Below are positions 1 to 34,032 of a DNA stretch of 37,189 bases, in pieces. The stretch is from NCBI GenBank assembly GCA_041310895.1, contig JBFYWT010000014.1, positions 1 through 37,189 on the forward strand, written 5' to 3'. Source of the stretch: Desulfobacteraceae bacterium (GTDB lineage: Bacteria; Desulfobacterota; Desulfobacteria; Desulfobacterales; SpSt-501). The notes under the pieces were generated by a model. It was not told the DNA's origin and ran no database searches. It saw only the letters and a list, made by a program, of their open reading frames with translations. Position numbers and translations under genes: made by a program. Numbering within the stretch: position 1 is the first letter of the stretch; each line of letters starts with the position of its first letter.

Positions 1-68
1 ACCCTTTTTACTTCGTAAGAACGACTTAACTGTTACCTACTGTCCGCCAGGGCGTCGGCCGGGATGGT

Positions 69-374
69 TTATTTCCTGAAAACGGAAAACAGCTTGCCGA
101 GAACGTTTTCGCCCAGATTGCTAAGAGCCGCCAGTTCGCCCTTGTCAAGCCAGATGCCTTCACAATCCGAACAGCGGTCGATTTTGATGCCGCGATAATC
201 GATTTCCACAAGATGCATGCCGCATTTCGGGCACTGCATGTGATGAAGGTTCTTTAACCGCTCCTTTTCGGAGGCGGCCAGTTTCTGCTGTTTTGCCTGC
301 TCCAGCTTTTTCAGACGTTCGAATTCAAGGAGAGCGAAATATTCCTCTTCTTTTTCTGTCGGTTGTACGGGCAT
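69..374 (-). CDS. TFIIB-type zinc-ribbon domain protein (small, coiled-coil N-terminus)
   Basis: 101-aa ORF. The C-terminal half carries CPKCG...x...CSDCEGIWLDKGEL, the pattern of the zf-TFIIB family. AAGGAGA lies 6 nt before the ATG at 374. Confidence 0.7.
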   Translation of the reverse strand: MPVQPTEKEEEYFALLEFERLKKLEQAKQQKLAASEKERLKNLHHMQCPKCGMHLVEIDYRGIKIDRCSDCEGIWLDKGELAALSNLGENVLGKLFSVFRK

Positions 375-456: not shown

Positions 457-537
457 TAAAAAAATGCAGCTTCCCATTAATCCGAGTGACGCAGACGGGC
501 TTGATCGCAGCTGTCATCCCGCTTGTCATCTCTACAT

Positions 538-757
538 TTACCAATGATGGTGGGGGAGGGACCACTCTTGGGTTTCTAAATTCCGGCCGTTTCCTAGAAA
601 CGCGAGGACGTCATCAGTGGGTATGGATTTGATCTGCCTGTCGCTGAACGCTTCGTGGAACCGGGTGAAAATGAACTCATAGTTCTTGAGCGTATTTTTT
701 TTTCGAGTTCAACCGATGGTGCTGCCTGAAAGATTGGATGGCCTGGCTGACCTTCAT
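538..757 (-). pseudogene. remnant of a tyrosine recombinase/phage integrase (N-terminal SAM-like domain only, frameshifted)
   Basis: ATG at 757 is preceded by AGGAGG. Translation MKVSQAIQSFRQHHRLNSKK runs into a 9-nt homopolymer (695-703) and stops. A -1 shift restores NTLKNYEFIFTRFHEAFSDRQIKSIPTDDVLAFL, typical of integrase N-terminal domains. No catalytic domain follows. Confidence 0.4.
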
Positions 758-7834: not shown

Positions 7835-9532
7835 TCACATATACCCCTTCTGCCCCAGATAGAGCAGGATCTCCTGGGCGGCCTCGTCCGGGGTGAGGTT
7901 CGCGGTGTCGATGCGGACCTCGGGGGACTCGGGCGCTTCATAGGGATCGTCGACGCCGGTGAACCCCTTGACGAGCCCCGCGCGGGCCCTGGCGTACATG
8001 CCCTTGCGGTCGCGCTTTTCACACACCTCGATCGGGGTGGCCACATGGACCTCGATGAACCCCCCGTAGGCTTGGATCCCGCGGCGGATCTCGGCCCGGG
8101 TCTTGGCATAGGGTGCAATCGGGGCACAGATGGCGATGCCCCGGTTCTTGGTGATCTCGGAGGCCACAAAGCCGATGCGGCGCACATTGATATCCCGATG
8201 TTCTTTGGAGAAGGTGAGCTCGCTCGACAGGTTGTGGCGGACGATGTCCCCGTCCAGGAGCGTAACCGGGCGCTCGCCGCGTTCCAGGAACTTGGAGTAG
8301 AGGATCCGGGCAATGGTGGACTTGCCGGCGCCGGAGAGGCCGGTCATGAAAATGCTGAACCCCTGCCGGTCCGGCGGGGGATAGGCCTGCTGGAGCTCGG
8401 CGATCACTTCGGGAAATGTGGCCCACTCCGGGATCCGCCGCCCTTCGCGCACCCGGCGGCGGATATCGGTGCCGGAGAGGGAGATGCCCTGGGTCCCCGG
8501 CGGGATCTGGTCGGCGCCGCGGTACTCGTCCTCGAAGGGGAGGTAGACCATCTCGGGAAACGAGATGATCTCGATTCCGATCTCCGCGGCGTGTTCGGCG
8601 ACCAGCCGGCAGGCGTCGTCCGGCCCGTAGAAAGGCTTACCGTTTGGATCGCACCCGGGGCCGCCGTGGTCGCGGCCGGCGATGAAATGGGTGCAGCCGA
8701 GGTTACGGCAGACGATGGCGTGCAGCAGGGCTTCGCGCGGCCCGGACATGCGCATCGAGAGCGGCAGCAGGTTGAGCAGGTAGGCCTCGGGCGGGTAGTG
8801 CTGCACGACCTTGCGCACACAGCGCACCCGGGTGTAATGGTCGAAGTCCCCCGGCTTGGTCATGCCGGCCACGGGCAAAATCAGCAAGTTCGCCCGGGCC
8901 TGGCGCATGGCCTGCAAGGTCATTTCGAACTGAGGCCGGTGGATGGGATTCTCGGTGATGAACCCGACCGTGCGCTTCCAGTTGAGCTTGCGGACGGCGA
9001 CGCGGATTTCAGCGGGGCTTAGCCGGATCTTGCGGAAATCGTAGTGCAGCGGCAGGCTGATCACCTCGATCCGCCCGCCGATGTAGACGTCGCCGGTCCG
9101 ATTGAGCAGGTAATCGGCCCCGGGGTGGGAGGGGTCGAGGGTGCCGTAGATCTGATGCGCCTCTTTCTCCCGGTCCGCCGGCCAGATGTCCTCAATGTGC
9201 ATCACCGCCAGCAGAAACCCTTCCGGGTCGCGCAGTGCGACCGACTGGCCCGCCTCCAGGCTGCGGGCCATGGTTTCGGAGACGTCCAGGCAGATGGGAA
9301 CCGGCCAGACCGAGCCGTCCGCAAGGCGCATGCGGTCGAGCACCGGCTCGTAATCGGCCCGCGTCATGAACCCGTGCAGGGGATGAAACCCGCCGCTGGC
9401 CAGCATTTCCAGATCGCAGAGCTGCCGATCGTTCAAAGTGATGTCCGGCATGCTGACGGTAAGCTCTTTCAGCAGTGCCGCGCGCGCGTCGTCCACCAAG
9501 CCGCATGCAGTTTCCGATAGGGTCGATGCCAT
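7835..9532 (-). CDS. bifunctional sulfate adenylyltransferase-like / adenylylsulfate (APS) kinase
   Basis: The N-terminal ~380 aa are ATP-sulfurylase-like (PUA-like domain, LTKPGD-type MTKPGDFDHYTRVRC, AGRDHGGPG). The C-terminal ~180 aa are an APS kinase (GLSGAGKST P-loop, LDGDIVRH, FTGVDDPYE). Confidence 0.9.
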   Translation of the reverse strand: MASTLSETACGLVDDARAALLKELTVSMPDITLNDRQLCDLEMLASGGFHPLHGFMTRADYEPVLDRMRLADGSVWPVPICLDVSETMARSLEAGQSVALRDPEGFLLAVMHIEDIWPADREKEAHQIYGTLDPSHPGADYLLNRTGDVYIGGRIEVISLPLHYDFRKIRLSPAEIRVAVRKLNWKRTVGFITENPIHRPQFEMTLQAMRQARANLLILPVAGMTKPGDFDHYTRVRCVRKVVQHYPPEAYLLNLLPLSMRMSGPREALLHAIVCRNLGCTHFIAGRDHGGPGCDPNGKPFYGPDDACRLVAEHAAEIGIEIISFPEMVYLPFEDEYRGADQIPPGTQGISLSGTDIRRRVREGRRIPEWATFPEVIAELQQAYPPPDRQGFSIFMTGLSGAGKSTIARILYSKFLERGERPVTLLDGDIVRHNLSSELTFSKEHRDINVRRIGFVASEITKNRGIAICAPIAPYAKTRAEIRRGIQAYGGFIEVHVATPIEVCEKRDRKGMYARARAGLVKGFTGVDDPYEAPESPEVRIDTANLTPDEAAQEILLYLGQKGYM

Positions 9533-18029: not shown

Positions 18030-21000
18030 TTAGCGTGTTTCCTTCACGGCCGCAACGATGAACTCGGCGACCTTTTCGGCCGAACGGCCGTAGAGCTCGT
18101 CGATGGCCACCCGGTCCAGCAAGCCGTCGCTCCAGGGGATGCTGTTTTCTTGAACGATGTTTTTGATGTTTTCGAATTTGCCGCCCAGGGCCCGGATCCT
18201 GGCCTCCAGGGGCACGCGCACTTGAAAGACGATGTGCAGCAGGAGCAGGTGCTCGATGCGGTTCGGCCGGGAAGGGGCGGAGGCCATCAGGGGGATCACG
18301 AGGATGCTGCGGTCGTCCTTGCGACCCTTGCCGATATAGACGTTGCCGTCCCGGACGATGATGCGCTTGGTGCCCTTCAGGGCCGGGTCGGATTCCACCC
18401 GGGAGGGGAGGGTGCGGGTGTCGCCGCGCTTGTTCACCACCTCGATCGTGGTGCCCTCGTCGGGTTCTCCCAGGACGCTCAAACCGACGATGCGGTAGAG
18501 GATCGACCCCTGGATCTCGCGCACGACCGCCTGCAGGTTCTTCAGCACCGCGACGTTGGAGGGGATGAGCTGGGCGGGCGAGAAGTGTTCCGCCGCCAGG
18601 GCCGTGAAGAGCAGCCCGTCAGGCTCTTCGCTGATGCGGCTGGTGCCGACGGTGACGGTTTTGGCCTGGTGCTTGATGGCGTCCACGGGGCGGGCGAGAA
18701 ACCCGATGGCATGGCCCAGATGCTCGAAGAGCACGGCGAGCATGTTGGCGGCGGTTCCCTGCCGGCCGAAGTCGAGGTCGAAATCCGCAGCCGGCAGCCG
18801 ACCCGACAGGTATTTGAGGAGCAGGGTGAGGTCGGAGCTGGCGTCATAGCCGACCGTGACCGGAAATTGCCTCTGGCTGCGTTTGCGCCGGAAGTCGGCG
18901 TAGAATTCGGCAATTTTCTCGCGGAACCCCTTTTCCAGGATCAGCTCGAAGAGATCCACCCCCCGGCGGGCCGCGCCGCCGACCGCCTGCTGGAGCTCCT
19001 CGTGAAAGCGGAAAAGAAACCGCGACCCCTCGTGGATGGAGAGGGCGGCGTAATATCCCCAGAGGTGCCCGGCGAGGGTGTTCAGGATCGGGGCCAGATG
19101 CTCGGCGACCACCGGCACCTGGAAAAGGTCCGCGGCGTAGGGGGCGAAGCGCTCCTCGCCTTCGTTGCAGATCACGACCGGCGTGGCCTTGTGCGCTTTG
19201 AAGATGGCGGTGTCCTTCACGATGTCGCCGATCACGGTCGGCCGCGCCCCGGCGGCGCAGACGATGATAAGCGGCTCGGAGGAGAGGTCGATGTGCTTCT
19301 TGTCTTCCACGTAGTCCGAAGAGATGGTCTTGTAGCAGAGCTCGCTCAGCTTGATGCGGATCTCATCGGCCGAAGCCTTGTTGGGGCCGCTGCCGACGAC
19401 CGCCCAGAACGTTTTGGTGACGGCCAGCCGCCGGGCGGATGCCTCCAGCCGCTCCGAAAGAGCGAGGACCCGGCGCATCTGGCCCGGCAGGTCGAGCAGC
19501 CGCCGGATCTCGTCGGAAACGAACGCCTCGTCGCGGCGGCCTTTCAATCGGGCGATGTGCAGCCCCAGCAGCGCCCCGGCGGTGATCTGGGCGTAGAAGG
19601 CCTTGGTGGAGGCGACCGACATCTCGATGTCGCGGCCGCTGCTGGTGTAGAGCACCCCGTCCACCTTGTAGGTCAGGTCCGAGTCCCGGCGGTTCACAAT
19701 GGCGAGGGTTCGGGCTCCCCGCTCCCTCACCATGTCGACCGAGCGGTTGGTATCGGTCGTGGTACCGGACTGGCTGATGGCGACGACCAGGGCGTCCGCC
19801 ATGGAGTCGCGGCCGGCGGCGGCGTCGAGGGTGAACCCGCTGAACTCCGAGGCCTTGAGCGCCTGGACCTGGATGGCCGGGCTGTTCAAATAGTGCTGCA
19901 GGATGTTGGCGCAGGCGAGGGCGGCGACACCGGCCGTGCCCTGGCCGATGAAGAAGATCCGCCGGATGGCCCCTTCGGCGAGGGCGCGGTTGACCGCGGG
20001 CGGCACCGCCTTCGCATCGAGCGCCGTAACGAACCCGCCGGTCCCGCCCTCGGCCACCTTCCAGCGGTTGCGCAGGGTCTTCTCGACCGAGGCCGGGGAC
20101 TCGGAGACTTCCTTGAGAAAATAGTGCGGGAAGTGCTGGCGGTCGATGTCGCGCGAGGTGAGTTCGGTGTGCGTGAGCTTGGAATCGCCCAGCGCGACAG
20201 GTGTCCCGTCGTAGCGCATGGCCGTAATGCCGCTCAGCCCGCCCGGTGAGAGCTGGTCCAGGACGACGATCTGCCCTTGGGTTTTTCCGGAGGCCCCCTC
20301 CACGACCGACTCCCCGTCGAGCCGGATGCAGGTGGAGGTCTCCTCGATGAGCCCGTAGACCTCCGAGGTGGCCATGTAGAGGTCCGGAGTGATGCCGACG
20401 AAGATGGCCTGGCCGCTGCCGCGCTGGGCAAGGAAGAGCTTGCCGGGCGCCAGGCTCGTGTGCATGGCAATGGCGTGGGAGCCGGCGAAGTCGTTGACCG
20501 CCCGCCGGAAGGCCTCGGCCACCTCGAAGCCCTGCCGCAGGTAGTGATCGACCTGGAGCGGGATGATTTTGGTGTCGGTCGTGACGTCCGCCGAGATGCG
20601 CCCGCCGCGTTGTTCGAAGGCCGCCTTGAGCGCGTGAAAATTGTCGATGTCGCCGTTCAGGCAGGCGTGGATGATACCGATGTCGCCGGCCACCCCCGCC
20701 TCGACGCGGTTGTCGACCGGGTGGCAGTTGGCCTCGGTGATGGCCCCGACCGACGCCCAGCGCGTGTGCGCGTTGACCGTGTGGAACACGAGCGGGAAGG
20801 CGACGATGGCCTGCAGGACGGGGTCCCCCGCGATGGCACGCCGCAGGGCGCGGATATTGTCCCCCAGGCTGCCGATCTCCACCGCCACCTTGTAAGTGAA
20901 GGCGACGGCGACCACGGCCCCGTGGCGGTGAACCGCGATGGAGTCGTTGAGCAGCGGCTGCCGGTCCAGGCGGCGGGTGAAATCGGCCATGGCGCCGCCC

Positions 21001-21764
21001 CGTTCGAGGGCGGCGCTGAAATGCTCGTAGTCGGAGGAGTGCAGGACGAAGAGCAGCGAGATCCCGGCCGAGTCGCGGCCGCGCACCTCCATGCGGTCGA
21101 TGCTGTTCAGCACCGAGTTGATGCCGCGGAAGACGCGCACGGTCTGCTCGGAACGGCCGGCCCCGATGCTGAGATCAGCCACCCGGGCGATGTTGCCCAG
21201 CACCTCGGTGCGCAGGCACCAGACGGCGTCCTTGAGCTGTTCGATGCGGCCGCTCACCGTGTCGGTTTCGACCACGCCGAGCCGGCCGACCTGCTCCTCG
21301 AAGCAGCCCGCTTCCACGCTCTGGCATGTGGCCAAAGCGGAGGCCAGGTCGTCGAGTCGCGCCTGGAGGGCGGGGTCCGCATAGATGCGGGCAAAGGCAT
21401 CCGGGCGCCGGAGCTCCCGGGCTTGCCGGACCAGTTCGAGCATGCACGTTTCTCCGCCCAGATAGGCCTCGGAGAGTCCCTTGGCCTGGGCGCGGCAGGC
21501 CTCGAAGCCGTGGGCGCGGACGCGCTCCGCCAGCGCGGCCAGCGGGGCGACCGGCGCCTCCGCGGCCTCGGGTGCCGCGCGTTTGAAGGCCACGATGCCG
21601 GCGATGCCGCAGCCAAGCAGGGTGGCTCTGAGCGGCGCCACCACCACCGCCCCCGCCGGGACAGAGGCGAGGCGGCGGCCGAAGTAGACCGGGGCGTTCA
21701 ATCGGCGGGTCGCGATGGTCACGATCTGCTTTAGTCGTCGGATGAATGGGCGAACCATGCGCAT
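18030..21764 (-). CDS. giant GlmS-like glutamine amidotransferase (class II GATase + two SIS domains) with insertions and C-terminal extension
   Basis: 1244-aa ORF. GATase motifs are CGIAGIV (Cys52), RGRDSAG, HTRWASVG, NGDIDN and TTDTK. SIS1 is FIGQGTAG...ISQSGTTTDT. SIS2 is VVGSGPNKASADEIRIKLSE...EDKKHI. A GlmS-type tail, PVDAIKHQAKTVTVG, is followed by ~190 further residues. Confidence 0.8.
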   Translation of the reverse strand: MRMVRPFIRRLKQIVTIATRRLNAPVYFGRRLASVPAGAVVVAPLRATLLGCGIAGIVAFKRAAPEAAEAPVAPLAALAERVRAHGFEACRAQAKGLSEAYLGGETCMLELVRQARELRRPDAFARIYADPALQARLDDLASALATCQSVEAGCFEEQVGRLGVVETDTVSGRIEQLKDAVWCLRTEVLGNIARVADLSIGAGRSEQTVRVFRGINSVLNSIDRMEVRGRDSAGISLLFVLHSSDYEHFSAALERGGAMADFTRRLDRQPLLNDSIAVHRHGAVVAVAFTYKVAVEIGSLGDNIRALRRAIAGDPVLQAIVAFPLVFHTVNAHTRWASVGAITEANCHPVDNRVEAGVAGDIGIIHACLNGDIDNFHALKAAFEQRGGRISADVTTDTKIIPLQVDHYLRQGFEVAEAFRRAVNDFAGSHAIAMHTSLAPGKLFLAQRGSGQAIFVGITPDLYMATSEVYGLIEETSTCIRLDGESVVEGASGKTQGQIVVLDQLSPGGLSGITAMRYDGTPVALGDSKLTHTELTSRDIDRQHFPHYFLKEVSESPASVEKTLRNRWKVAEGGTGGFVTALDAKAVPPAVNRALAEGAIRRIFFIGQGTAGVAALACANILQHYLNSPAIQVQALKASEFSGFTLDAAAGRDSMADALVVAISQSGTTTDTNRSVDMVRERGARTLAIVNRRDSDLTYKVDGVLYTSSGRDIEMSVASTKAFYAQITAGALLGLHIARLKGRRDEAFVSDEIRRLLDLPGQMRRVLALSERLEASARRLAVTKTFWAVVGSGPNKASADEIRIKLSELCYKTISSDYVEDKKHIDLSSEPLIIVCAAGARPTVIGDIVKDTAIFKAHKATPVVICNEGEERFAPYAADLFQVPVVAEHLAPILNTLAGHLWGYYAALSIHEGSRFLFRFHEELQQAVGGAARRGVDLFELILEKGFREKIAEFYADFRRKRSQRQFPVTVGYDASSDLTLLLKYLSGRLPAADFDLDFGRQGTAANMLAVLFEHLGHAIGFLARPVDAIKHQAKTVTVGTSRISEEPDGLLFTALAAEHFSPAQLIPSNVAVLKNLQAVVREIQGSILYRIVGLSVLGEPDEGTTIEVVNKRGDTRTLPSRVESDPALKGTKRIIVRDGNVYIGKGRKDDRSILVIPLMASAPSRPNRIEHLLLLHIVFQVRVPLEARIRALGGKFENIKNIVQENSIPWSDGLLDRVAIDELYGRSAEKVAEFIVAAVKETR

Positions 21765-28888: not shown

Positions 28889-28945
28889 GACAGCTTGAGC
28901 TTAAAAGTCAAGACGTTGTTACGCCACCGACCCCGGACCACCCCG

Positions 28946-29728
28946 ATGAAGATCTTGCTGACCAACGACGACGGCATCCATGCGGAGGGCCTCTGGGCGC
29001 TTCATGCCCGGCTCTCACGCCGCCATGATGTGACCGTGATCGCGCCGGACCGCGAGCGCACGGCGGTCAGCCACGGCATCACCCTGCACCAGCCGCTGCG
29101 CGCCGTGCCGGTGGCGGTGAACGGCGGCGGAGGGGTTGCGGTCAATGGGACTCCCGCCGATTGCGTCAAGCTCGGAATTCTGGAAATCTTGAAATCCAAA
29201 CCCGATCTCGTGGTGGCCGGCCTGAACCCGGGCGCCAACGTGGGGGTCAACATCGCCTATTCGGGTACGGTGGCGGCCGCCAAGGAGGCGGCGCTCAGCG
29301 ATATACCGGCCATCGCGGCCTCGATGGAGGGCCGGGGCCCGTATGCCTACGAAACAGCCGCAGGGTTCGTCGCCGAACTGGCCGAGATGCTCCTCCGTCG
29401 CGGGCTTGCCGCCGGCACTTTTCTGAATGTCAACTTTCCGGACGTCCGGCCGGAGCAGATCGCCGGGGTTTGCATCAGCCGGCACGGGCTTCAGACCTTC
29501 CGGGAAGTCATGGAAAAGCGTATCGATCCCCGCAACCGGCCCTATTACTGGCAGGGGGCGGACATGCAGACCTTCGGAGAGGACCCGGATGTGGACGGAG
29601 TCGCCCTCCGCCGGGGCTACATTTCCATTACCCCGATCCAATGCGACATGACCGACTACAGCGTCATGGAAGAGCTCAAGCACTGGGCGATCGGGATTTC
29701 TCCCGGGCGGCCGCGGCCCGGCACCTGA
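28946..29728 (+). CDS. surE: 5'/3'-nucleotidase SurE
   Basis: Canonical MKILLTNDDGIHAEGL N-terminus, plus GLNPGANVG and YSGTVAAA motifs. The track start at 28895 (TTG) is an extension. Confidence 0.9.
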   Translation: MKILLTNDDGIHAEGLWALHARLSRRHDVTVIAPDRERTAVSHGITLHQPLRAVPVAVNGGGGVAVNGTPADCVKLGILEILKSKPDLVVAGLNPGANVGVNIAYSGTVAAAKEAALSDIPAIAASMEGRGPYAYETAAGFVAELAEMLLRRGLAAGTFLNVNFPDVRPEQIAGVCISRHGLQTFREVMEKRIDPRNRPYYWQGADMQTFGEDPDVDGVALRRGYISITPIQCDMTDYSVMEELKHWAIGISPGRPRPGT

Positions 29729-29779
29729 AGCGGCCGAGGGCGGCGGCAGGAAATCGGCCCTCTGGTGGGCGGAGGCGTC

Positions 29780-30451
29780 ATGTTTATCACCTTGGAAGGC
29801 GGCGAGGGGGCCGGGAAGACAACCAAGATGGTGCGCCTGGCCGAATGGCTGCGCGCCCGCGGGGGCGGCTGGACCCTCACGCGCGAGCCCGGCGGCACCG
29901 CGCTCGGCCGGTCGATTCGGGCGCTCCTGCTCGATCCCGCGAACCGGGGAATGGCCCCGGAAACCGAGCTCATGCTCTACATGGCGGATCGGGCCGAGCA
30001 CGTGCACAAAGTGATTGCGCCGGCCCTGGCGGCCGGCGACGGCGTGCTCTGCGATCGCTTTTTTGATGCCACCATCGTCTACCAGGGATTTGCCCGCGGG
30101 CTGCCGGCGGAGCGGCTGCTTGAGCTGCACCGGCTGGTTTTGGCTGACCTGCGGCCGCAGTTGACCCTGCTCCTGGACCTTTCCCCCGAGGTGGGCCTGG
30201 CCCGCGCCCGCGGCGAGCTGGCGAAGGGCAGACGCGCTCAGGCCGAAAGCCGGTTCGAGCGCGAGACCCTCGCGTTCCACCGGCGGGTGCGGGAGGGCTA
30301 TCTCCGCCTGGCGCGGCAGGCGCCGGAGCGGTTCCGGGTCGTGGACGCCGCCCGGGAGGCCGAGCAGGTCCAAGCGGATCTGCGCGCCGCCGTGGCGGCC
30401 TTTCTTTCCCCGGCCGGGCAAGGCGGCGTCCTGAACGCATGCAACCGATGA
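29780..30451 (+). CDS. tmk: thymidylate kinase
   Basis: MFITLEGGEGAGKTT P-loop and the DRF/DAT region (CDRFFDATIVYQG). ATG 29780 follows GGAGG. The stop TGA 30449-30451 overlaps ATG 30448 of the next gene. Confidence 0.9.
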   Translation: MFITLEGGEGAGKTTKMVRLAEWLRARGGGWTLTREPGGTALGRSIRALLLDPANRGMAPETELMLYMADRAEHVHKVIAPALAAGDGVLCDRFFDATIVYQGFARGLPAERLLELHRLVLADLRPQLTLLLDLSPEVGLARARGELAKGRRAQAESRFERETLAFHRRVREGYLRLARQAPERFRVVDAAREAEQVQADLRAAVAAFLSPAGQGGVLNACNR

Positions 30452-32712
30452 ATCAGCCCAGCGCCTCCATCCTCGATCTCATCGGCAACACCCCGTTGGT
30501 CGAAATCCGGCGGATGAACCCCGCGCCCCGGGTCCGGGTGCTGGCCAAGCTCGAGTATCTCAACCCGGGCGGATCCATCAAGGACCGCGCCGCCCTCTCC
30601 ATGATCGAGGCGGCGGAGCGCTCCGGGGAGCTCACACCGGAAAAGATCGTGATCGAGGCGACCAGCGGCAACACCGGAATCGGGCTCGCCATGGTGTGCG
30701 CGGTGAAGGGCTACCGGCTGCTGCTCGCCATGTCGGAAGCCGTCAGCCTGGAGCGCCGCAAAATCCTCCAGGCGCGGGGTGCGCAGATTCTCTTGACCCC
30801 CGGCCATCTGGGCACCGACGGGGCGATCGAGGAGGTCTACCGCCGGGTGCGCGAGCACCCCGATCGGTACGTTGCCGTGGATCAGTTCAACAACGAGGCG
30901 AACTGGAAGGCGCACTACCACGGTACGGCCGAGGAGATCTGGCGCCAGACAGAGGGGACGGTCACCGTCCTCGTGGCCACCATGGGGACCACCGGGACTC
31001 TCATGGGGGTCTCGCGGCGCCTGAAGGAGTATAATGCCGCCGTCCGCGTGGTGGGGGTCGAGCCCTACCTCGGCCACCGCATCCAGGGCTTGAAGAACCT
31101 CAGGGAAGCCTACTGCCCGGAGATCTTCGAACGGCAGCGGTTGGACCGCAAGGTCAACATCGACGACGAGGAGGCCTACGATGCGGCCCGGCGCCTGGCG
31201 CGGGAGGAGGGGCTGCTGGTCGGCATGAGCAGCGGGGCGGCCATGGCGGCCGCGCTGCGGGAGGCGGCGCTTCTGGAGGAAGGCACCGTGGTCGCCATCC
31301 TGCCGGACGGCGGGGAGCGCTATCTCAGCACGGCCCTCTTCTCGGATCAGGAGAAGCTTGAGCTTCAGGTCTCCCACCTCCTCGGCCGGGCACGCGAACC
31401 GCTCGCGCCCCTGCAGCCCGGGCGGGTCGCGATTTACACCTGCGGGCCTCATACCCAGCGGCCGATGCGGCTCGGAGAGGCCCGGCGCTTTCTCGTGGCC
31501 GACCTCCTGCGGCGCTACCTGCGCTGGCGCGGCTGGGCCGTGACCCAGGTGGTGGACCTGAGTGACCTGGAACCCGATGCCCGCCGGCCGGCGGCCGACG
31601 GGGCACCCGTAGGCCGCCTCGACCAGATCCTGGAGGAGATGGCCTGGCTCGCGGTCGAGCCGGCCGAACACACCCCCCGGGCGCGGGACCACGCCGAGGA
31701 CATGGTGGCGCTCGCGCGGCGGCTCTCGGCCAAGGGGTTCGCCTACGAAAAGCTGCGCTCGCTCTATTTCAACCTCTCGCGGTTCAACGCCTATGGCCGG
31801 CTCTCGGGCATTGACCCCGCCCGGACTCGGGCCGGAGCCTCCGTCGACCTCGAGGACTTCGAGAAGGACCACCCGGGCGACTTTGCGCTCTTCAAGCGCT
31901 GCCGGCTCTCCGAGCTCAAGCGGGGCGCCTTCGTGAAGACCGACTGGGGCAACATGCGCCCCTCCTGGCATCTGCAGACGACCGCCATGGCGATGAAGTA
32001 CCTCGGTGAGAATTTCGATGTCCACATCAGCAGCCGCGAGCTTCTCTTTCCCCACCACGAAAACGAGAACGCCATTGCGGCGGCCCTGACCGGCAAGCCG
32101 CTCGCCAACTGCTGGATTCATGCCGAACGGGTTCTGGGGGAGGACCCCGGACTGCGCGCACTGCGCGAAAAGGGAATCGCCCCCCGCGAGCTCCGGTTCT
32201 GGCTGATGTCGGTTCACTATCGCAAGCCGGCGGTTTTCGCCTGGGATCGGATTCTGGAGGCCCGGCGTTCGCTGCGGCGCCTGGATGACTGCGTGGCGAG
32301 GTTGATGAATGTCCACGGCGGGGAGCCATGTCCCGAACTTGACCAGTTGATCTACGATCTGCGCCAGGGGTTGCGCCGCGGCATGGACGACGACCTGAAC
32401 ACCCCGGCCATCCTCGCAGCCCTCTTCCAGGCGGTCCGAAGCATCAACGGATTTCTCGCCCGAGGCGCCATGGATGAGCGTGGCGCCGGCCGACTGCTAT
32501 CCGCCTTCCAGGACATTAATGCCGTGCTCGGCATCCTCGACTTCCGGCAAAAATCGGATGCGGCCGAGGCGGTCCTCGAGCTCATTGCCGCCCGCGAAAA
32601 AGCGAGGAGCGCGGGCGACTTCGAGCTGGCCGACCGGCTGAGGGCGCAGTTGCTCGCGGCCGGCGTGCGGGTGCAGGACCGCTGCCCGGTCGGGCGGAAG
32701 CGATCCGCATGA
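30439..32712 (+). CDS. fusion protein: PLP-dependent cysteine synthase (CysK/CysM-like) + degenerate cysteinyl-tRNA-synthetase-like module
   Basis: Residues 1-300 carry NPGGSIKDR (PLP Lys48), TSGNTG, GTTGT, SSGAA and ERYLST. Residues ~308-757 are colinear with CysRS: VAIYTCGP, WH.....AM, FPHHENE, DDDLNTP and a C-terminal ELIAAREKARSAGDFELADRLR helix pair. HIGH is replaced by RLGE (31468-31479) and KMSKS is absent. The alternative start ATG 30448 forms an ATGA overlap with tmk. Confidence 0.85.
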   Translation: MQPMNQPSASILDLIGNTPLVEIRRMNPAPRVRVLAKLEYLNPGGSIKDRAALSMIEAAERSGELTPEKIVIEATSGNTGIGLAMVCAVKGYRLLLAMSEAVSLERRKILQARGAQILLTPGHLGTDGAIEEVYRRVREHPDRYVAVDQFNNEANWKAHYHGTAEEIWRQTEGTVTVLVATMGTTGTLMGVSRRLKEYNAAVRVVGVEPYLGHRIQGLKNLREAYCPEIFERQRLDRKVNIDDEEAYDAARRLAREEGLLVGMSSGAAMAAALREAALLEEGTVVAILPDGGERYLSTALFSDQEKLELQVSHLLGRAREPLAPLQPGRVAIYTCGPHTQRPMRLGEARRFLVADLLRRYLRWRGWAVTQVVDLSDLEPDARRPAADGAPVGRLDQILEEMAWLAVEPAEHTPRARDHAEDMVALARRLSAKGFAYEKLRSLYFNLSRFNAYGRLSGIDPARTRAGASVDLEDFEKDHPGDFALFKRCRLSELKRGAFVKTDWGNMRPSWHLQTTAMAMKYLGENFDVHISSRELLFPHHENENAIAAALTGKPLANCWIHAERVLGEDPGLRALREKGIAPRELRFWLMSVHYRKPAVFAWDRILEARRSLRRLDDCVARLMNVHGGEPCPELDQLIYDLRQGLRRGMDDDLNTPAILAALFQAVRSINGFLARGAMDERGAGRLLSAFQDINAVLGILDFRQKSDAAEAVLELIAAREKARSAGDFELADRLRAQLLAAGVRVQDRCPVGRKRSA

Positions 32713-33665
32713 CCCCGGTCTATTTCCCCTTCACGCACCTCTCCTTGCGGGCGGCCGTGGCCCTTCAGGCCTATTTTGAGACCATCACGCTGCTGCGCCC
32801 TTTTGCCGACCCCCTGTCGTCCGGGATGCGGGAGCTGGAGCGACGGGGGTTCCTGAAAGTATGCACGCCTGTTCGCGGCAGCGAGGAGGCCCCGGCCGCT
32901 GCGCTCCGGCAGCTGCAGGAATGGGGCAACCGACACGCCGGCGGGGTCGGCCCGGCGGCGGCCTTCTGGCACGGGCAGCTTTCCCGCGGGGAGTTGTCCG
33001 CCTTTGAGCTGGCCGCCAGGGTCAAACGCCGGCCGACATCCGCGGAAGGGCCTTCCGCGGCCGATCGGCTGCGGGCGGCCCGGGTGTTTCTGCACCTCGC
33101 CCAAGAGTTGGATCGACAGGAGGACGAGTTGCTCCAGGGGCTCGCGAGCCACGATCAGCTGAACGCCCAGCTGATGGAGAGGTTGATGGGGCGGCCCGAC
33201 CCCGGACCTTCGCCGGCGAGCGGCCTTAGCTCCCCGGTGCGTGAAGCTCACCGGCTGGCCGATCGGCTCTCAGCCTGGGCCCGGCTGTTTCGGGAGCAGG
33301 AGTGCCCCCGCCCGGTCCTGGTGACCACCAGCGCCGCCGTCGCCGAGCACCTGCTGCAGGTATCCGCCGGGGCGCGGATTATAGCGTCCGCGGCCGTGCG
33401 CGGGCCGGAGGGGTCGCTGATCCCGCAGCTTGCGCAGTGGGCGGCGGCGCCCGCGGACTGGATCGCGGCCCTGCCAGCGGCAAACGGCGGCGTGGACCCC
33501 GAGCTGGTCAAAGGCGGGCCCAGCGTCATCGTTTTTCCCGGGCAGGCCCCGCAGCGCTTCCTCAGCCGGCTATCCGTTCTCGATCAGGGGGCGGAAGCGC
33601 TATCTCCGGGCAGCCCCCCGGAACAGCACGCGCTTCTCGTCCTGGTCCCGCCCGACCTGGCGTAA
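32709..33665 (+). CDS. hypothetical protein (Ala/Leu/Arg-rich, no recognised domain), translationally coupled to the fusion gene
   Basis: 318-aa ORF. Its ATG 32709 overlaps the stop TGA 32710-32712 of the preceding gene. Codon usage and GC3 look like the neighbouring genes. No motif is recognised. Confidence 0.55.
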   Translation: MTPVYFPFTHLSLRAAVALQAYFETITLLRPFADPLSSGMRELERRGFLKVCTPVRGSEEAPAAALRQLQEWGNRHAGGVGPAAAFWHGQLSRGELSAFELAARVKRRPTSAEGPSAADRLRAARVFLHLAQELDRQEDELLQGLASHDQLNAQLMERLMGRPDPGPSPASGLSSPVREAHRLADRLSAWARLFREQECPRPVLVTTSAAVAEHLLQVSAGARIIASAAVRGPEGSLIPQLAQWAAAPADWIAALPAANGGVDPELVKGGPSVIVFPGQAPQRFLSRLSVLDQGAEALSPGSPPEQHALLVLVPPDLA

Positions 33666-33843
33666 AATATTATAACTATTTGAAATTAATATTTAAATAT
33701 TTTAATGCGGGCCTGCCTCAAAAAAATGCAACAAAGCTTGACTCGTCTTTTTAATTGGTATATGCACTCATCCGTACATCGATCCGGAACGCAATGGCGA
33801 GTGCTCGCCATGGATGCATAACCTACCGAAAGGAGATGAACTG

Positions 33844-34032
33844 ATGGCTTTTAATCCCACCGTCGATGAGGAAAAATGCGCTGGCTGCGAAGAGTGCGTG
33901 GACGTCTGCCCGGTCGAGGTCTTCGAAATGCAGGACGGAAAATCCGTACCGGTGAATGCTGAAGAGTGCCTCGGTTGCGAGAGCTGCGTCGAGGTCTGCT
34001 CGGAAGGCGCCATCAAAGTCGAAGAGACCTGA
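33844..34032 (+). CDS. 2[4Fe-4S] ferredoxin
   Basis: 62 aa with CAGCEECVDVCP and CLGCESCVEVCS cluster motifs. AAAGGAGA SD lies before ATG 33844; the track start at 33814 is an extension. Confidence 0.85.
   Translation: MAFNPTVDEEKCAGCEECVDVCPVEVFEMQDGKSVPVNAEECLGCESCVEVCSEGAIKVEET

Follow-up and report, generated by a model that had tools for sequence, protein, structure and literature searches.

A predicted cysteine synthase fused to a cysteinyl-tRNA synthetase-like module that lacks HIGH and KMSKS is widespread in sulfate-reducing bacteria

A stretch of 37,189 nucleotides from a Desulfobacteraceae bacterium (assembly GCA_041310895.1, contig JBFYWT010000014.1, positions 1 to 37,189 of the forward strand; the window in what follows) contains, at positions 30439–32712 on the plus strand, a single unbroken frame of 757 codons plus a stop, in which a cysteine synthase is joined to a full-length module (residues ~313–748) related to cysteinyl-tRNA synthetase (CysRS). 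The explanation that we favor, with a probability of about 0.45, is that the product of this gene combines an active cysteine synthase with a catalytically dead module that binds tRNA-Cys and serves for regulation or tethering. The public protein P0001 is identical to the fusion product, with the start placed 3 codons downstream, at 30448. The original prediction, which was made by a model from the letters of the sequence, had described the uninterrupted 757-codon frame together with a series of synthase and synthetase motifs, and each of these motifs was recovered where it had been placed (Table 1).

Profile hidden Markov model searches, which had been proposed as a check of that reading, matched Pfam PALP at residues 12–290 (E = 3.7e-72), tRNA-synt_1e at residues 323–606 (E = 8.8e-49) and DALR_2 at residues 649–700 (E = 1.2e-9); the match to CysS_C at residues 707–748 was marginal (E = 1.2e-4; 22.6 bits, just below the cut-off of 23). 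In the AlphaFold2 model of the fusion, the domains are folded well and are connected by a linker (residues 294–304) with a predicted local distance difference test score (pLDDT) below 50 and a sequence that differs between relatives; the predicted TM-score (pTM) of the whole model is 0.58. A structural comparison with a CysRS-tRNA complex had likewise been called for, and the model matches chain 1u0b_B of such a complex over 465 columns in Foldseek.

The N-terminal half is predicted to be an active CysM-type sulfhydrylase dependent on pyridoxal phosphate (PLP), and we see no reason to doubt this assignment. Its score against the TIGR01136 cysKM model of NCBIfam (368.3 bits) exceeds the cut-off of 344.15, whereas the score against the narrower cysM equivalog (367.5 bits) falls below the cut-off of 394.2. 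The C-terminal 130 residues of the domain match residues 166–295 of Escherichia coli and Salmonella CysM without gaps, K219 lines up with R210 of E. coli CysM, and the short loop that sets CysM apart from CysK is present (EPYLGHRIQGLKN). Foldseek superposition of the AlphaFold2 model on 2v03 and 2bhs, both CysM structures, gives TM-scores of 0.90–0.92. The hallmarks of an active sulfhydrylase that the original prediction had read in the first ~300 residues are complete (K48, TSGNTG, GTTGT, SSGAA). Across 120 relatives, the Schiff-base lysine (K48, in the S-x-K-D-R motif) and TSGNTG are each retained in 120/120, and the PLP lysine, the Asn loop, the phosphate loop and the serine of SSGAA are essentially invariant; the PALP half is the most conserved part of the protein, with a mean identity of 79% compared to 46–57% for the CysRS-like parts. 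Among characterized enzymes, the closest to this half are CysM of E. coli and Salmonella (O-acetylserine sulfhydrylase B), with which it shares the short active-site loop, and, grouped with them, CysM of Mycobacterium tuberculosis (O-phosphoserine sulfhydrylase). It differs from CysM in carrying the CysRS-like module and in scoring below the cysM equivalog cut-off.

In the CysRS-like half, residues are numbered as in E. coli CysRS (HIGH, H37–H40; KMSKS, K266–S270); the E. coli sequence used for numbering agrees with the 1li5 alignment at all motifs used. The motif tables cover 121 close relatives and, additionally, 20 fusions from genome loci with the region assembled. The module is colinear with E. 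coli CysRS over all domains (phmmer, E = 6e-48), and Foldseek matches it to 8qhp and 1u0b (E from 1e-31 to 1e-29). In alignments to 8qhp, 3tqo and 1li5, RLGE occupies the HIGH position, KMSKS faces a gap, and Thr514 takes the place of Cys209, in agreement with the original description of both signature motifs. A HIGH or KMSKS displaced to another part of the protein would have spoken against this description, and no HIGH-like or KMSKS-like string was found elsewhere in the whole fusion protein. The canonical HIGH tetrad is present in 0/121 close relatives, the fourth position of this motif is acidic (E or D) in 115/121, with Glu in the window protein, and KMSKS is absent from all 121; the loop of the KMSKS region in the window protein is shorter by ~10 residues than in most relatives. 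Three zinc ligands of the window protein are retained, namely C335 (C28), H539 (H234) and E543 (E238), and the fourth, C209, is replaced by T514. At position 209, however, the close relatives have C in 60 cases, T in 44 and other residues in 17; the zinc triplet C28/C209/E238 is complete in 53/121, is of the C/T/E type in 44/121, including the window protein, and is more degraded in 24/121. Thus, the substitution of Thr for the zinc cysteine that had been pointed out is real in the window protein but, given that C209 is kept in 60 of the 121 relatives, it is a lineage detail rather than a family-defining trait.

The score against the cysS equivalog TIGR00435 is 221.5 bits, well short of the cut-off of 340. 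The module retains the fold and the anticodon residues of CysRS but lacks HIGH, KMSKS, a full zinc site and an equivalog-level score, and because the defining tests of CysRS fail, the fusion should not be annotated as a cysteine--tRNA ligase. This result agrees with the claim that the fusion is not a working CysRS, and extends the loss of HIGH and KMSKS from the window protein to all 121 close relatives. A true bifunctional enzyme, in which a still-working CysRS would rely on non-canonical catalytic residues, appears highly improbable: some class I synthetases are known to tolerate a variant KMSKS, and the relatives P0123 and Smithella L015, which have HLGN and KMSRS, may be active, but the window protein has neither motif, its KMSKS-region loop is shortened, its fourth HIGH position is Glu, one zinc ligand is lost, and the TIGR00435 score is far below the cut-off.

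The residues of the C-terminal domain that recognize the anticodon show the opposite pattern. R719, R723, F728, D732, R735, G742 and D747 of the fusion correspond to R423, R427, W432, D436, R439, G446 and D451 of E. coli CysRS. The positions of R423, R427, D436, R439 and D451 are invariant in 121/121 close relatives; the W432 position is always aromatic (W in 113/121, F in 8/121), and G446 is kept in 120/121, the lone exception being a change to R. The 20 more distant fusions retain these residues too, apart from a single replacement, R427 to K, in one Desulfovibrionales protein. A 2026 engineering study based on the structure 1U0B targeted R427, W432, D436 and R439 as anticodon contacts, and E. 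coli CysRS with all four residues replaced was still active, with an altered anticodon preference (PMC13449415). Because the four-fold replacement leaves an active, retargeted enzyme, these residues determine specificity and not the fold, and their invariance in a domain that appears catalytically dead suggests that reading of the GCA anticodon is still being selected for. Binding of tRNA-Cys through the dead module is thus strongly suggested by sequence conservation.

The ratio of nonsynonymous to synonymous substitutions (dN/dS), estimated against relatives with 90% and 83% protein identity (dS of 0.24–1.0), is 0.09–0.12 for the PALP half, 0.14–0.15 for the Rossmann/connective peptide (CP) part, and 0.19–0.23 for the helical and anticodon-binding part. 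The dead CysRS half is, accordingly, under purifying selection (dN/dS of 0.14–0.23). In the CP domain, residues 487–496 (about 31897–31926) form a family-specific basic segment, R-L-S-E-L-K-R-G, which stands in for the K-x-G-E-P-x-W stretch of canonical CysRS and in which R487, L490, L493, K494 and G496 are invariant; this segment could be a new interaction surface or a surface for RNA contacts.

The architecture is far more common than could be seen from the window, and it is widespread in sulfate reducers. The best 120 database matches are all full-length fusions (726–785 aa, 58–100% identity) from many independent assemblies; in total, the architecture is common to more than 120 protein clusters. 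The fusion is present in the complete, closed genome of Desulfosarcina ovata, and full-length fusions occur in species-representative genomes of at least Desulfatibacillum, Desulforapulum autotrophicum, Desulfobacula, Desulfofustis, Desulfocapsa and Desulfopila; further among the matches listed are Candidatus Desulfobulbus, Smithella, Desulfovibrionaceae, Desulfocurvus and a metagenome-assembled genome (MAG) of Polyangiaceae. The taxonomic survey that had been proposed thus shows a wide spread in Desulfobacterota, in terms of larger groups across Desulfobacterales, Desulfobulbales, Desulfovibrionales and Smithella, along with the Polyangiaceae MAG. The original prediction had raised the concern that the junction could be an artefact joining separate genes; because many assemblies made independently of one another, a closed genome among them, contain the fusion, such an artefact is ruled out. 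The broader possibility of an inert relic or an assembly artefact (a mis-join or a frameshift) draws on the faster evolution of the CysRS-like half relative to the PALP half and on the frameshifted copies present in individual assemblies (L025, and L087, which looks like a frameshifted fusion); it is effectively refuted by the full-length frame in more than 120 clusters, by its recurrence in many assemblies and a closed genome, by the dN/dS of 0.14–0.23, and by the invariance of the specificity residues.

Graded decay became apparent from the motif table together with an exhaustive search that used the CysRS-like half as query. A PALP-CysRS fusion in a Nanoarchaeota MAG (P0139) has HIGN, KMSKS and intact zinc ligands, and a Falkowbacteria MAG (L030) and an archaeal MAG (L079) carry separate, adjacent cysM and canonical cysS genes; P0139, L030 and L079, all from archaeal or candidate-phyla-radiation MAGs with small genomes, are possibly genuine bifunctional units that make cysteine and charge it. 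The P0123 and Smithella L015 fusions keep HLGN and KMSRS, the Desulfobulbales fusions are half-decayed, with only K-M-S kept, and no ATP motif is left in the Desulfobacterales-type fusions; in Desulfovibrionales, C28, H206, C209, H235 and E238 are lost as well, whereas the anticodon motif is kept. Within the 88 loci covered, no separate canonical cysS was found save in the Falkowbacteria and archaeal MAGs. In addition, split versions were identified in L086 (4108–6455) and L088 (4079–7163), where only 2–4 nt lie between a cysM-like gene, 65% identical to the PALP half of the window protein, and the CysRS-like gene downstream of it, which has a degenerate HIGH (HIGL/HIGT) and KMSRS/KMARS; the seemingly stand-alone degenerate CysRS homologues are such split versions of the cysM-CysRS unit, and the cluster of P0128 alone comprises 58 members of identical length. 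That this pair occurs both fused and split is Rosetta-stone evidence that the two parts work together. The gene that follows the split pair in L088 encodes a ThiF/MoeB-type E1 protein, which, by analogy with CysM/CysO of M. tuberculosis, hints at a route through a sulfur carrier protein. As a separate observation, P0219 (711 aa; ENA contig of 167 kb) joins CysRS to a different enzyme of the cysteine pathway: its N-terminal domain, with hexapeptide repeats, resembles serine acetyltransferase, and the CysRS that follows is canonical.

These forms bear on the possibility of a passive tether, whereby the dead half would dock the synthase on tRNA-Cys, or on a complex of tRNA-Cys with a real CysRS, to channel cysteine without any allostery. 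The ancestral forms that look like make-and-charge enzymes or operons (P0139, L030, L079), the flexible linker and the conserved anticodon contacts all fit such an arrangement. However, a dead fused CysRS leaves the cysteine to reach another enzyme by diffusion, and no surface for interaction with canonical CysRS is known; we regard this explanation as rather unlikely.

A competing explanation, which we also rate as unlikely but ahead of the passive tether, is a sensor of free cysteine that resembles HisZ. HisZ is an inactive paralogue of HisRS that serves as the regulatory subunit of the short-form ATP phosphoribosyltransferase HisG and mediates its inhibition by histidine. By this precedent, the dead half of the fusion would bind cysteine in the remnant zinc/cysteine pocket and feedback-inhibit the synthase, and the tRNA-related features would be secondary or vestigial. 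Part of the amino-acid pocket is indeed conserved in the Desulfobacterales-type members, where H206, H234 and N237 are present in 121/121, and W205 and H235 in 120/121 each; the equivalents of T68/D69 are kept in most relatives, and three of the four zinc ligands persist in the window protein. Conversely, the zinc set is complete in just 53/121 members, with C/T/E in 44 and a worse state in 24, Desulfovibrionales have lost C28, H206, C209, H235 and E238 while the anticodon motif stays, and a cysteine sensor leaves the invariance of the anticodon-specificity residues unexplained. According to the original prediction, the module may still bind tRNA-Cys or cysteine. The first part of this proposal gains from the retained anticodon residues; cysteine binding is only partly supported, given that the zinc ligand set is complete in under half of the members.

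Yet another alternative is chemistry on tRNA itself, with the module holding Sep-, Ser- or Cys-tRNA for a PLP-dependent beta-replacement that yields Cys-tRNA or a persulfide. Retention of the anticodon domain and of part of the amino-acid pocket, along with the loss of the ATP motifs, is compatible with such a role, and there are precedents in SepRS/SepCysS and SelA, which work on residues attached to tRNA (see the reviews PMC5424206 and PMC8762117). Nevertheless, the invariant carboxylate-binding TSGNTG loop suits a free amino acid and not an ester, and the pocket is destroyed in the Desulfovibrionales fusions. All PLP enzymes known to us to depend on tRNA belong to fold type I, in contrast to the CysK/CysM fold. 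Furthermore, bacterial SepRS has been reported only in Parcubacteria and Chloroflexi, and there is no evidence for it in this lineage (PMC5424206). Taken together with the points in its favor, these observations render tRNA-dependent chemistry improbable. The SepRS-SepCysS-SepCysE transsulfursome resembles the fusion in that cysteine formation is physically coupled to tRNA-Cys, but it is built of unrelated proteins with a different PLP fold and acts on Sep-tRNA.

The gene directly downstream of the fusion encodes a 318-aa orphan protein. The orphan directly follows the fusion in L001–L004, L006, L007, L011–L013, L084 and L085, and does so in every Desulfobacterales-type locus examined that has enough downstream sequence; in L083 (6887–8011), an orphan homologue (E = 1.6e-23) lies directly upstream of, and overlaps, the P0123 fusion. 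This linkage in two different gene orders points to functional coupling, and the orphan protein probably works with the fusion. Neither Pfam nor NCBIfam has a match to the orphan, a word-indexed search yielded only 13 homologues, and its AlphaFold2 model (pLDDT 71, pTM 0.73) has no fold match in the PDB; the dN/dS to its closest relative is ~0.48. Within 3 kb of the fusions of Desulfobulbales, Desulfovibrionales and Smithella, no orphan homologue was detected, and the neighbours there are unrelated (CorA, Memo, a permease, EngA). Upstream, the closely packed genes surE and tmk belong to the same apparent operon, with the 3' end of tmk overlapping the fusion start; the surE-tmk order also precedes the fusion in L001, L002, L084 and L085, and a ferredoxin occupies the same position after the orphan in these four loci. 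The gene order is stable in the Desulfobacterales clade and comprises MetRS-PSP1-holB-HU-NusG-LptD on one strand and surE-tmk-fusion-orphan-ferredoxin on the other. Searches around the fusion gene yielded neither an Rfam family nor a tRNA gene, and no promoter or terminator there was convincing.

Table 1 Features of the fusion gene and its neighbourhood in the window.
Feature	Residues	Position	Strand	Remarks
surE and tmk		28895–30451	+	same apparent operon; Pfam SurE, Thymidylate_kin
Whole fusion gene		30439–32712	+	757 aa plus stop; alternative start 30448 (P0001)
CysM-type PLP-dependent sulfhydrylase domain (predicted)	12–290	30472–31308	+	PALP, TIGR01136, CysM alignment, Foldseek
GGSIKDR	44–50			PLP lysine K48
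TSGNTG	75–80			Asn loop
GTTGT	183–187			PLP-phosphate loop
SSGAA	264–268			
Interdomain linker	294–304	31318–31350	+	AlphaFold2 pLDDT <50; variable sequence; takes in the start of SDQEKLE
Junction SDQEKLE	302–308	31342–31362	+	
Degenerate CysRS Rossmann/CP catalytic-fold domain	~313–610	31375–32268	+	tRNA-synt_1e, structure alignments, motif tables, dN/dS
VAIYTCGP	330–337			
RLGE	344–347	31468–31479	+	HIGH position
RPSWHLQTTAM	507–517			
LLFPHHENE	535–543			
GEDPGLRALREKG	567–579	32137–32175	+	KMSKS-loop region, with deletion
LRFWLMSVHYR	585–595			
Helical DALR_2 and C-terminal anticodon-binding domain	649–748	32383–32682	+	DALR_2, CysS_C, conserved contacts, Foldseek
DDDLNTP	650–656			
Orphan partner gene		32709–33665	+	318 aa; start overlaps fusion stop (ATGA)
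Small ferredoxin		33814–34032	+	72 aa; two CxxCxxCxxxCP-type motifs, 2x[4Fe-4S]

Elsewhere in the window, a triple-domain protein of the Sat-CysC type (PUA_2, ATP-sulfurylase and APS-kinase) is encoded on the minus strand at 7835–9532, ~21 kb from the fusion. A frame of 1244 codons at 18030–21764 (minus strand) has Pfam matches solely to GATase_6 and SIS (GlmS-like), at residues 332–733; because the related L002 has a 753-aa gene at this place, the frame is probably an over-extended open reading frame in GC-rich DNA.

Under the favored explanation, that is, an active synthase with a dead tRNA-Cys-binding module, the following scenario can be proposed. The N-terminal half would use a sulfur nucleophile to convert O-acetylserine or O-phosphoserine to cysteine. 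The C-terminal half would descend from a complete CysRS that was once fused to, or operon-coupled with, cysM as a 'make and charge' pair, and activation of cysteine with ATP would have been lost in this lineage through the change of HIGH to RLGE, which places an acidic residue at the position of a phosphate-binding His/Asn, and through deletion of the KMSKS loop. The dead module would still bind tRNA-Cys via the GCA anticodon, as we infer from the combination of purifying selection on this half with intact anticodon-recognition residues, and may act as a tRNA-Cys-responsive regulator or as a tether of the attached synthase. Cysteine output could then be tuned by the amount or the charging state of tRNA-Cys, with the orphan product presumably acting together with the fusion. 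The most specific version, in which charged or uncharged tRNA-Cys gates the cysteine synthase through the dead CysRS and the orphan is part of the device, is put forward tentatively and is, in our estimate, less likely than its opposite. Several observations weigh against the favored explanation. The conservation of part of the amino-acid pocket in Desulfobacterales suits binding of cysteine or of a cysteinyl end at least as well as it suits a sensor of the tRNA body; the AlphaFold2 model of the fusion, with a pTM of 0.58 and a disordered linker, provides no confident interdomain geometry; and the neighbours surE, tmk and the ferredoxin offer no clue to function.

The CysRS-like half has two features expected of a pseudo-synthetase, namely, a synthetase fold that is under purifying selection despite lost motifs and a stable coupling to an effector enzyme. 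With canonical CysRS (E. coli CysS; 1li5, 1u0b), it shares the Rossmann and CP domains, the stem-contact/DALR helices and the anticodon domain with its conserved contacts, but differs in the absence of HIGH, KMSKS and one zinc ligand and in scoring below the equivalog cut-off. Functionally, HisZ and the HisRS-like domain of GCN2 come closest to the module under the favored explanation. The likeness to HisZ consists in a non-aminoacylating, synthetase-derived module whose partner is the enzyme that synthesizes the cognate amino acid, an enzyme that HisZ controls. However, HisZ derives from a class II synthetase, is a separate subunit without an anticodon-binding domain, and senses the free amino acid at the first step of the pathway, whereas the module analyzed here is of class I, is fused (or split in some lineages), keeps its anticodon contacts, and is attached to the enzyme of the last step. 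The HisRS-like domain of GCN2 binds uncharged tRNA and switches an effector kinase without aminoacylation. Like the module, it is a synthetase domain that has degenerated and become part of an effector enzyme, but it is eukaryotic, is not specific for a single tRNA, controls a kinase, and has no sequence relationship to the fusion.

Among known CysRS paralogues, MshC, the mycothiol cysteine ligase, and CysRS*, an active paralogue from Desulfobacterales without an anticodon-binding domain (PMC5389517), have also diverged in their roles, and CysRS* comes from the same order as the window. In both, adenylation is active and the anticodon domain is missing, the reverse of the pattern in the fusion module. 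The score against the MshC model TIGR03447 is 105 bits, compared to a cut-off of 485, and the fusion has an anticodon-binding domain; identity of the fusion with CysRS* was considered and rejected because CysRS* is active and lacks this domain (PMC5389517). A review of synthetase paralogues lists just CysRS* and MshC for CysRS (PMC9437257). Full-text literature searches found no publication that describes a fusion of cysteine synthase with CysRS, and none of the NCBIfam models is dedicated to it. The statement that this is not a characterized architecture therefore stands, and the fusion has apparently gone unstudied to date.

In public databases, the fusions are named inconsistently, either 'cysteine synthase' or 'cysteine--tRNA ligase' (P0056, P0095, P0098, P0114 and others). 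For the Desulfobacterales forms without HIGH and KMSKS, the latter name is probably wrong, and when the metabolism of sulfate reducers is reconstructed, such misnaming could mask the absence of cysS or lead to too many cysS genes being counted.

To our knowledge, the other ways in which bacteria link amino-acid synthesis to tRNA are all indirect and comprise T-box RNAs, the stringent response and end-product feedback. If the dead half of the fusion indeed reads tRNA-Cys, an enzyme of amino-acid synthesis would be under the direct influence of the very tRNA that uses up its product, and if gating by tRNA is true, the fusion would be a bacterial, amino-acid-specific counterpart of tRNA sensing of the GCN2 type, with a metabolic enzyme as its target in place of transcription or a kinase. 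The forms described here, from bifunctional make-and-charge units through half-decayed fusions to a dead tRNA-binding module, would constitute a natural series that shows a synthetase in the course of becoming a pseudo-synthetase.

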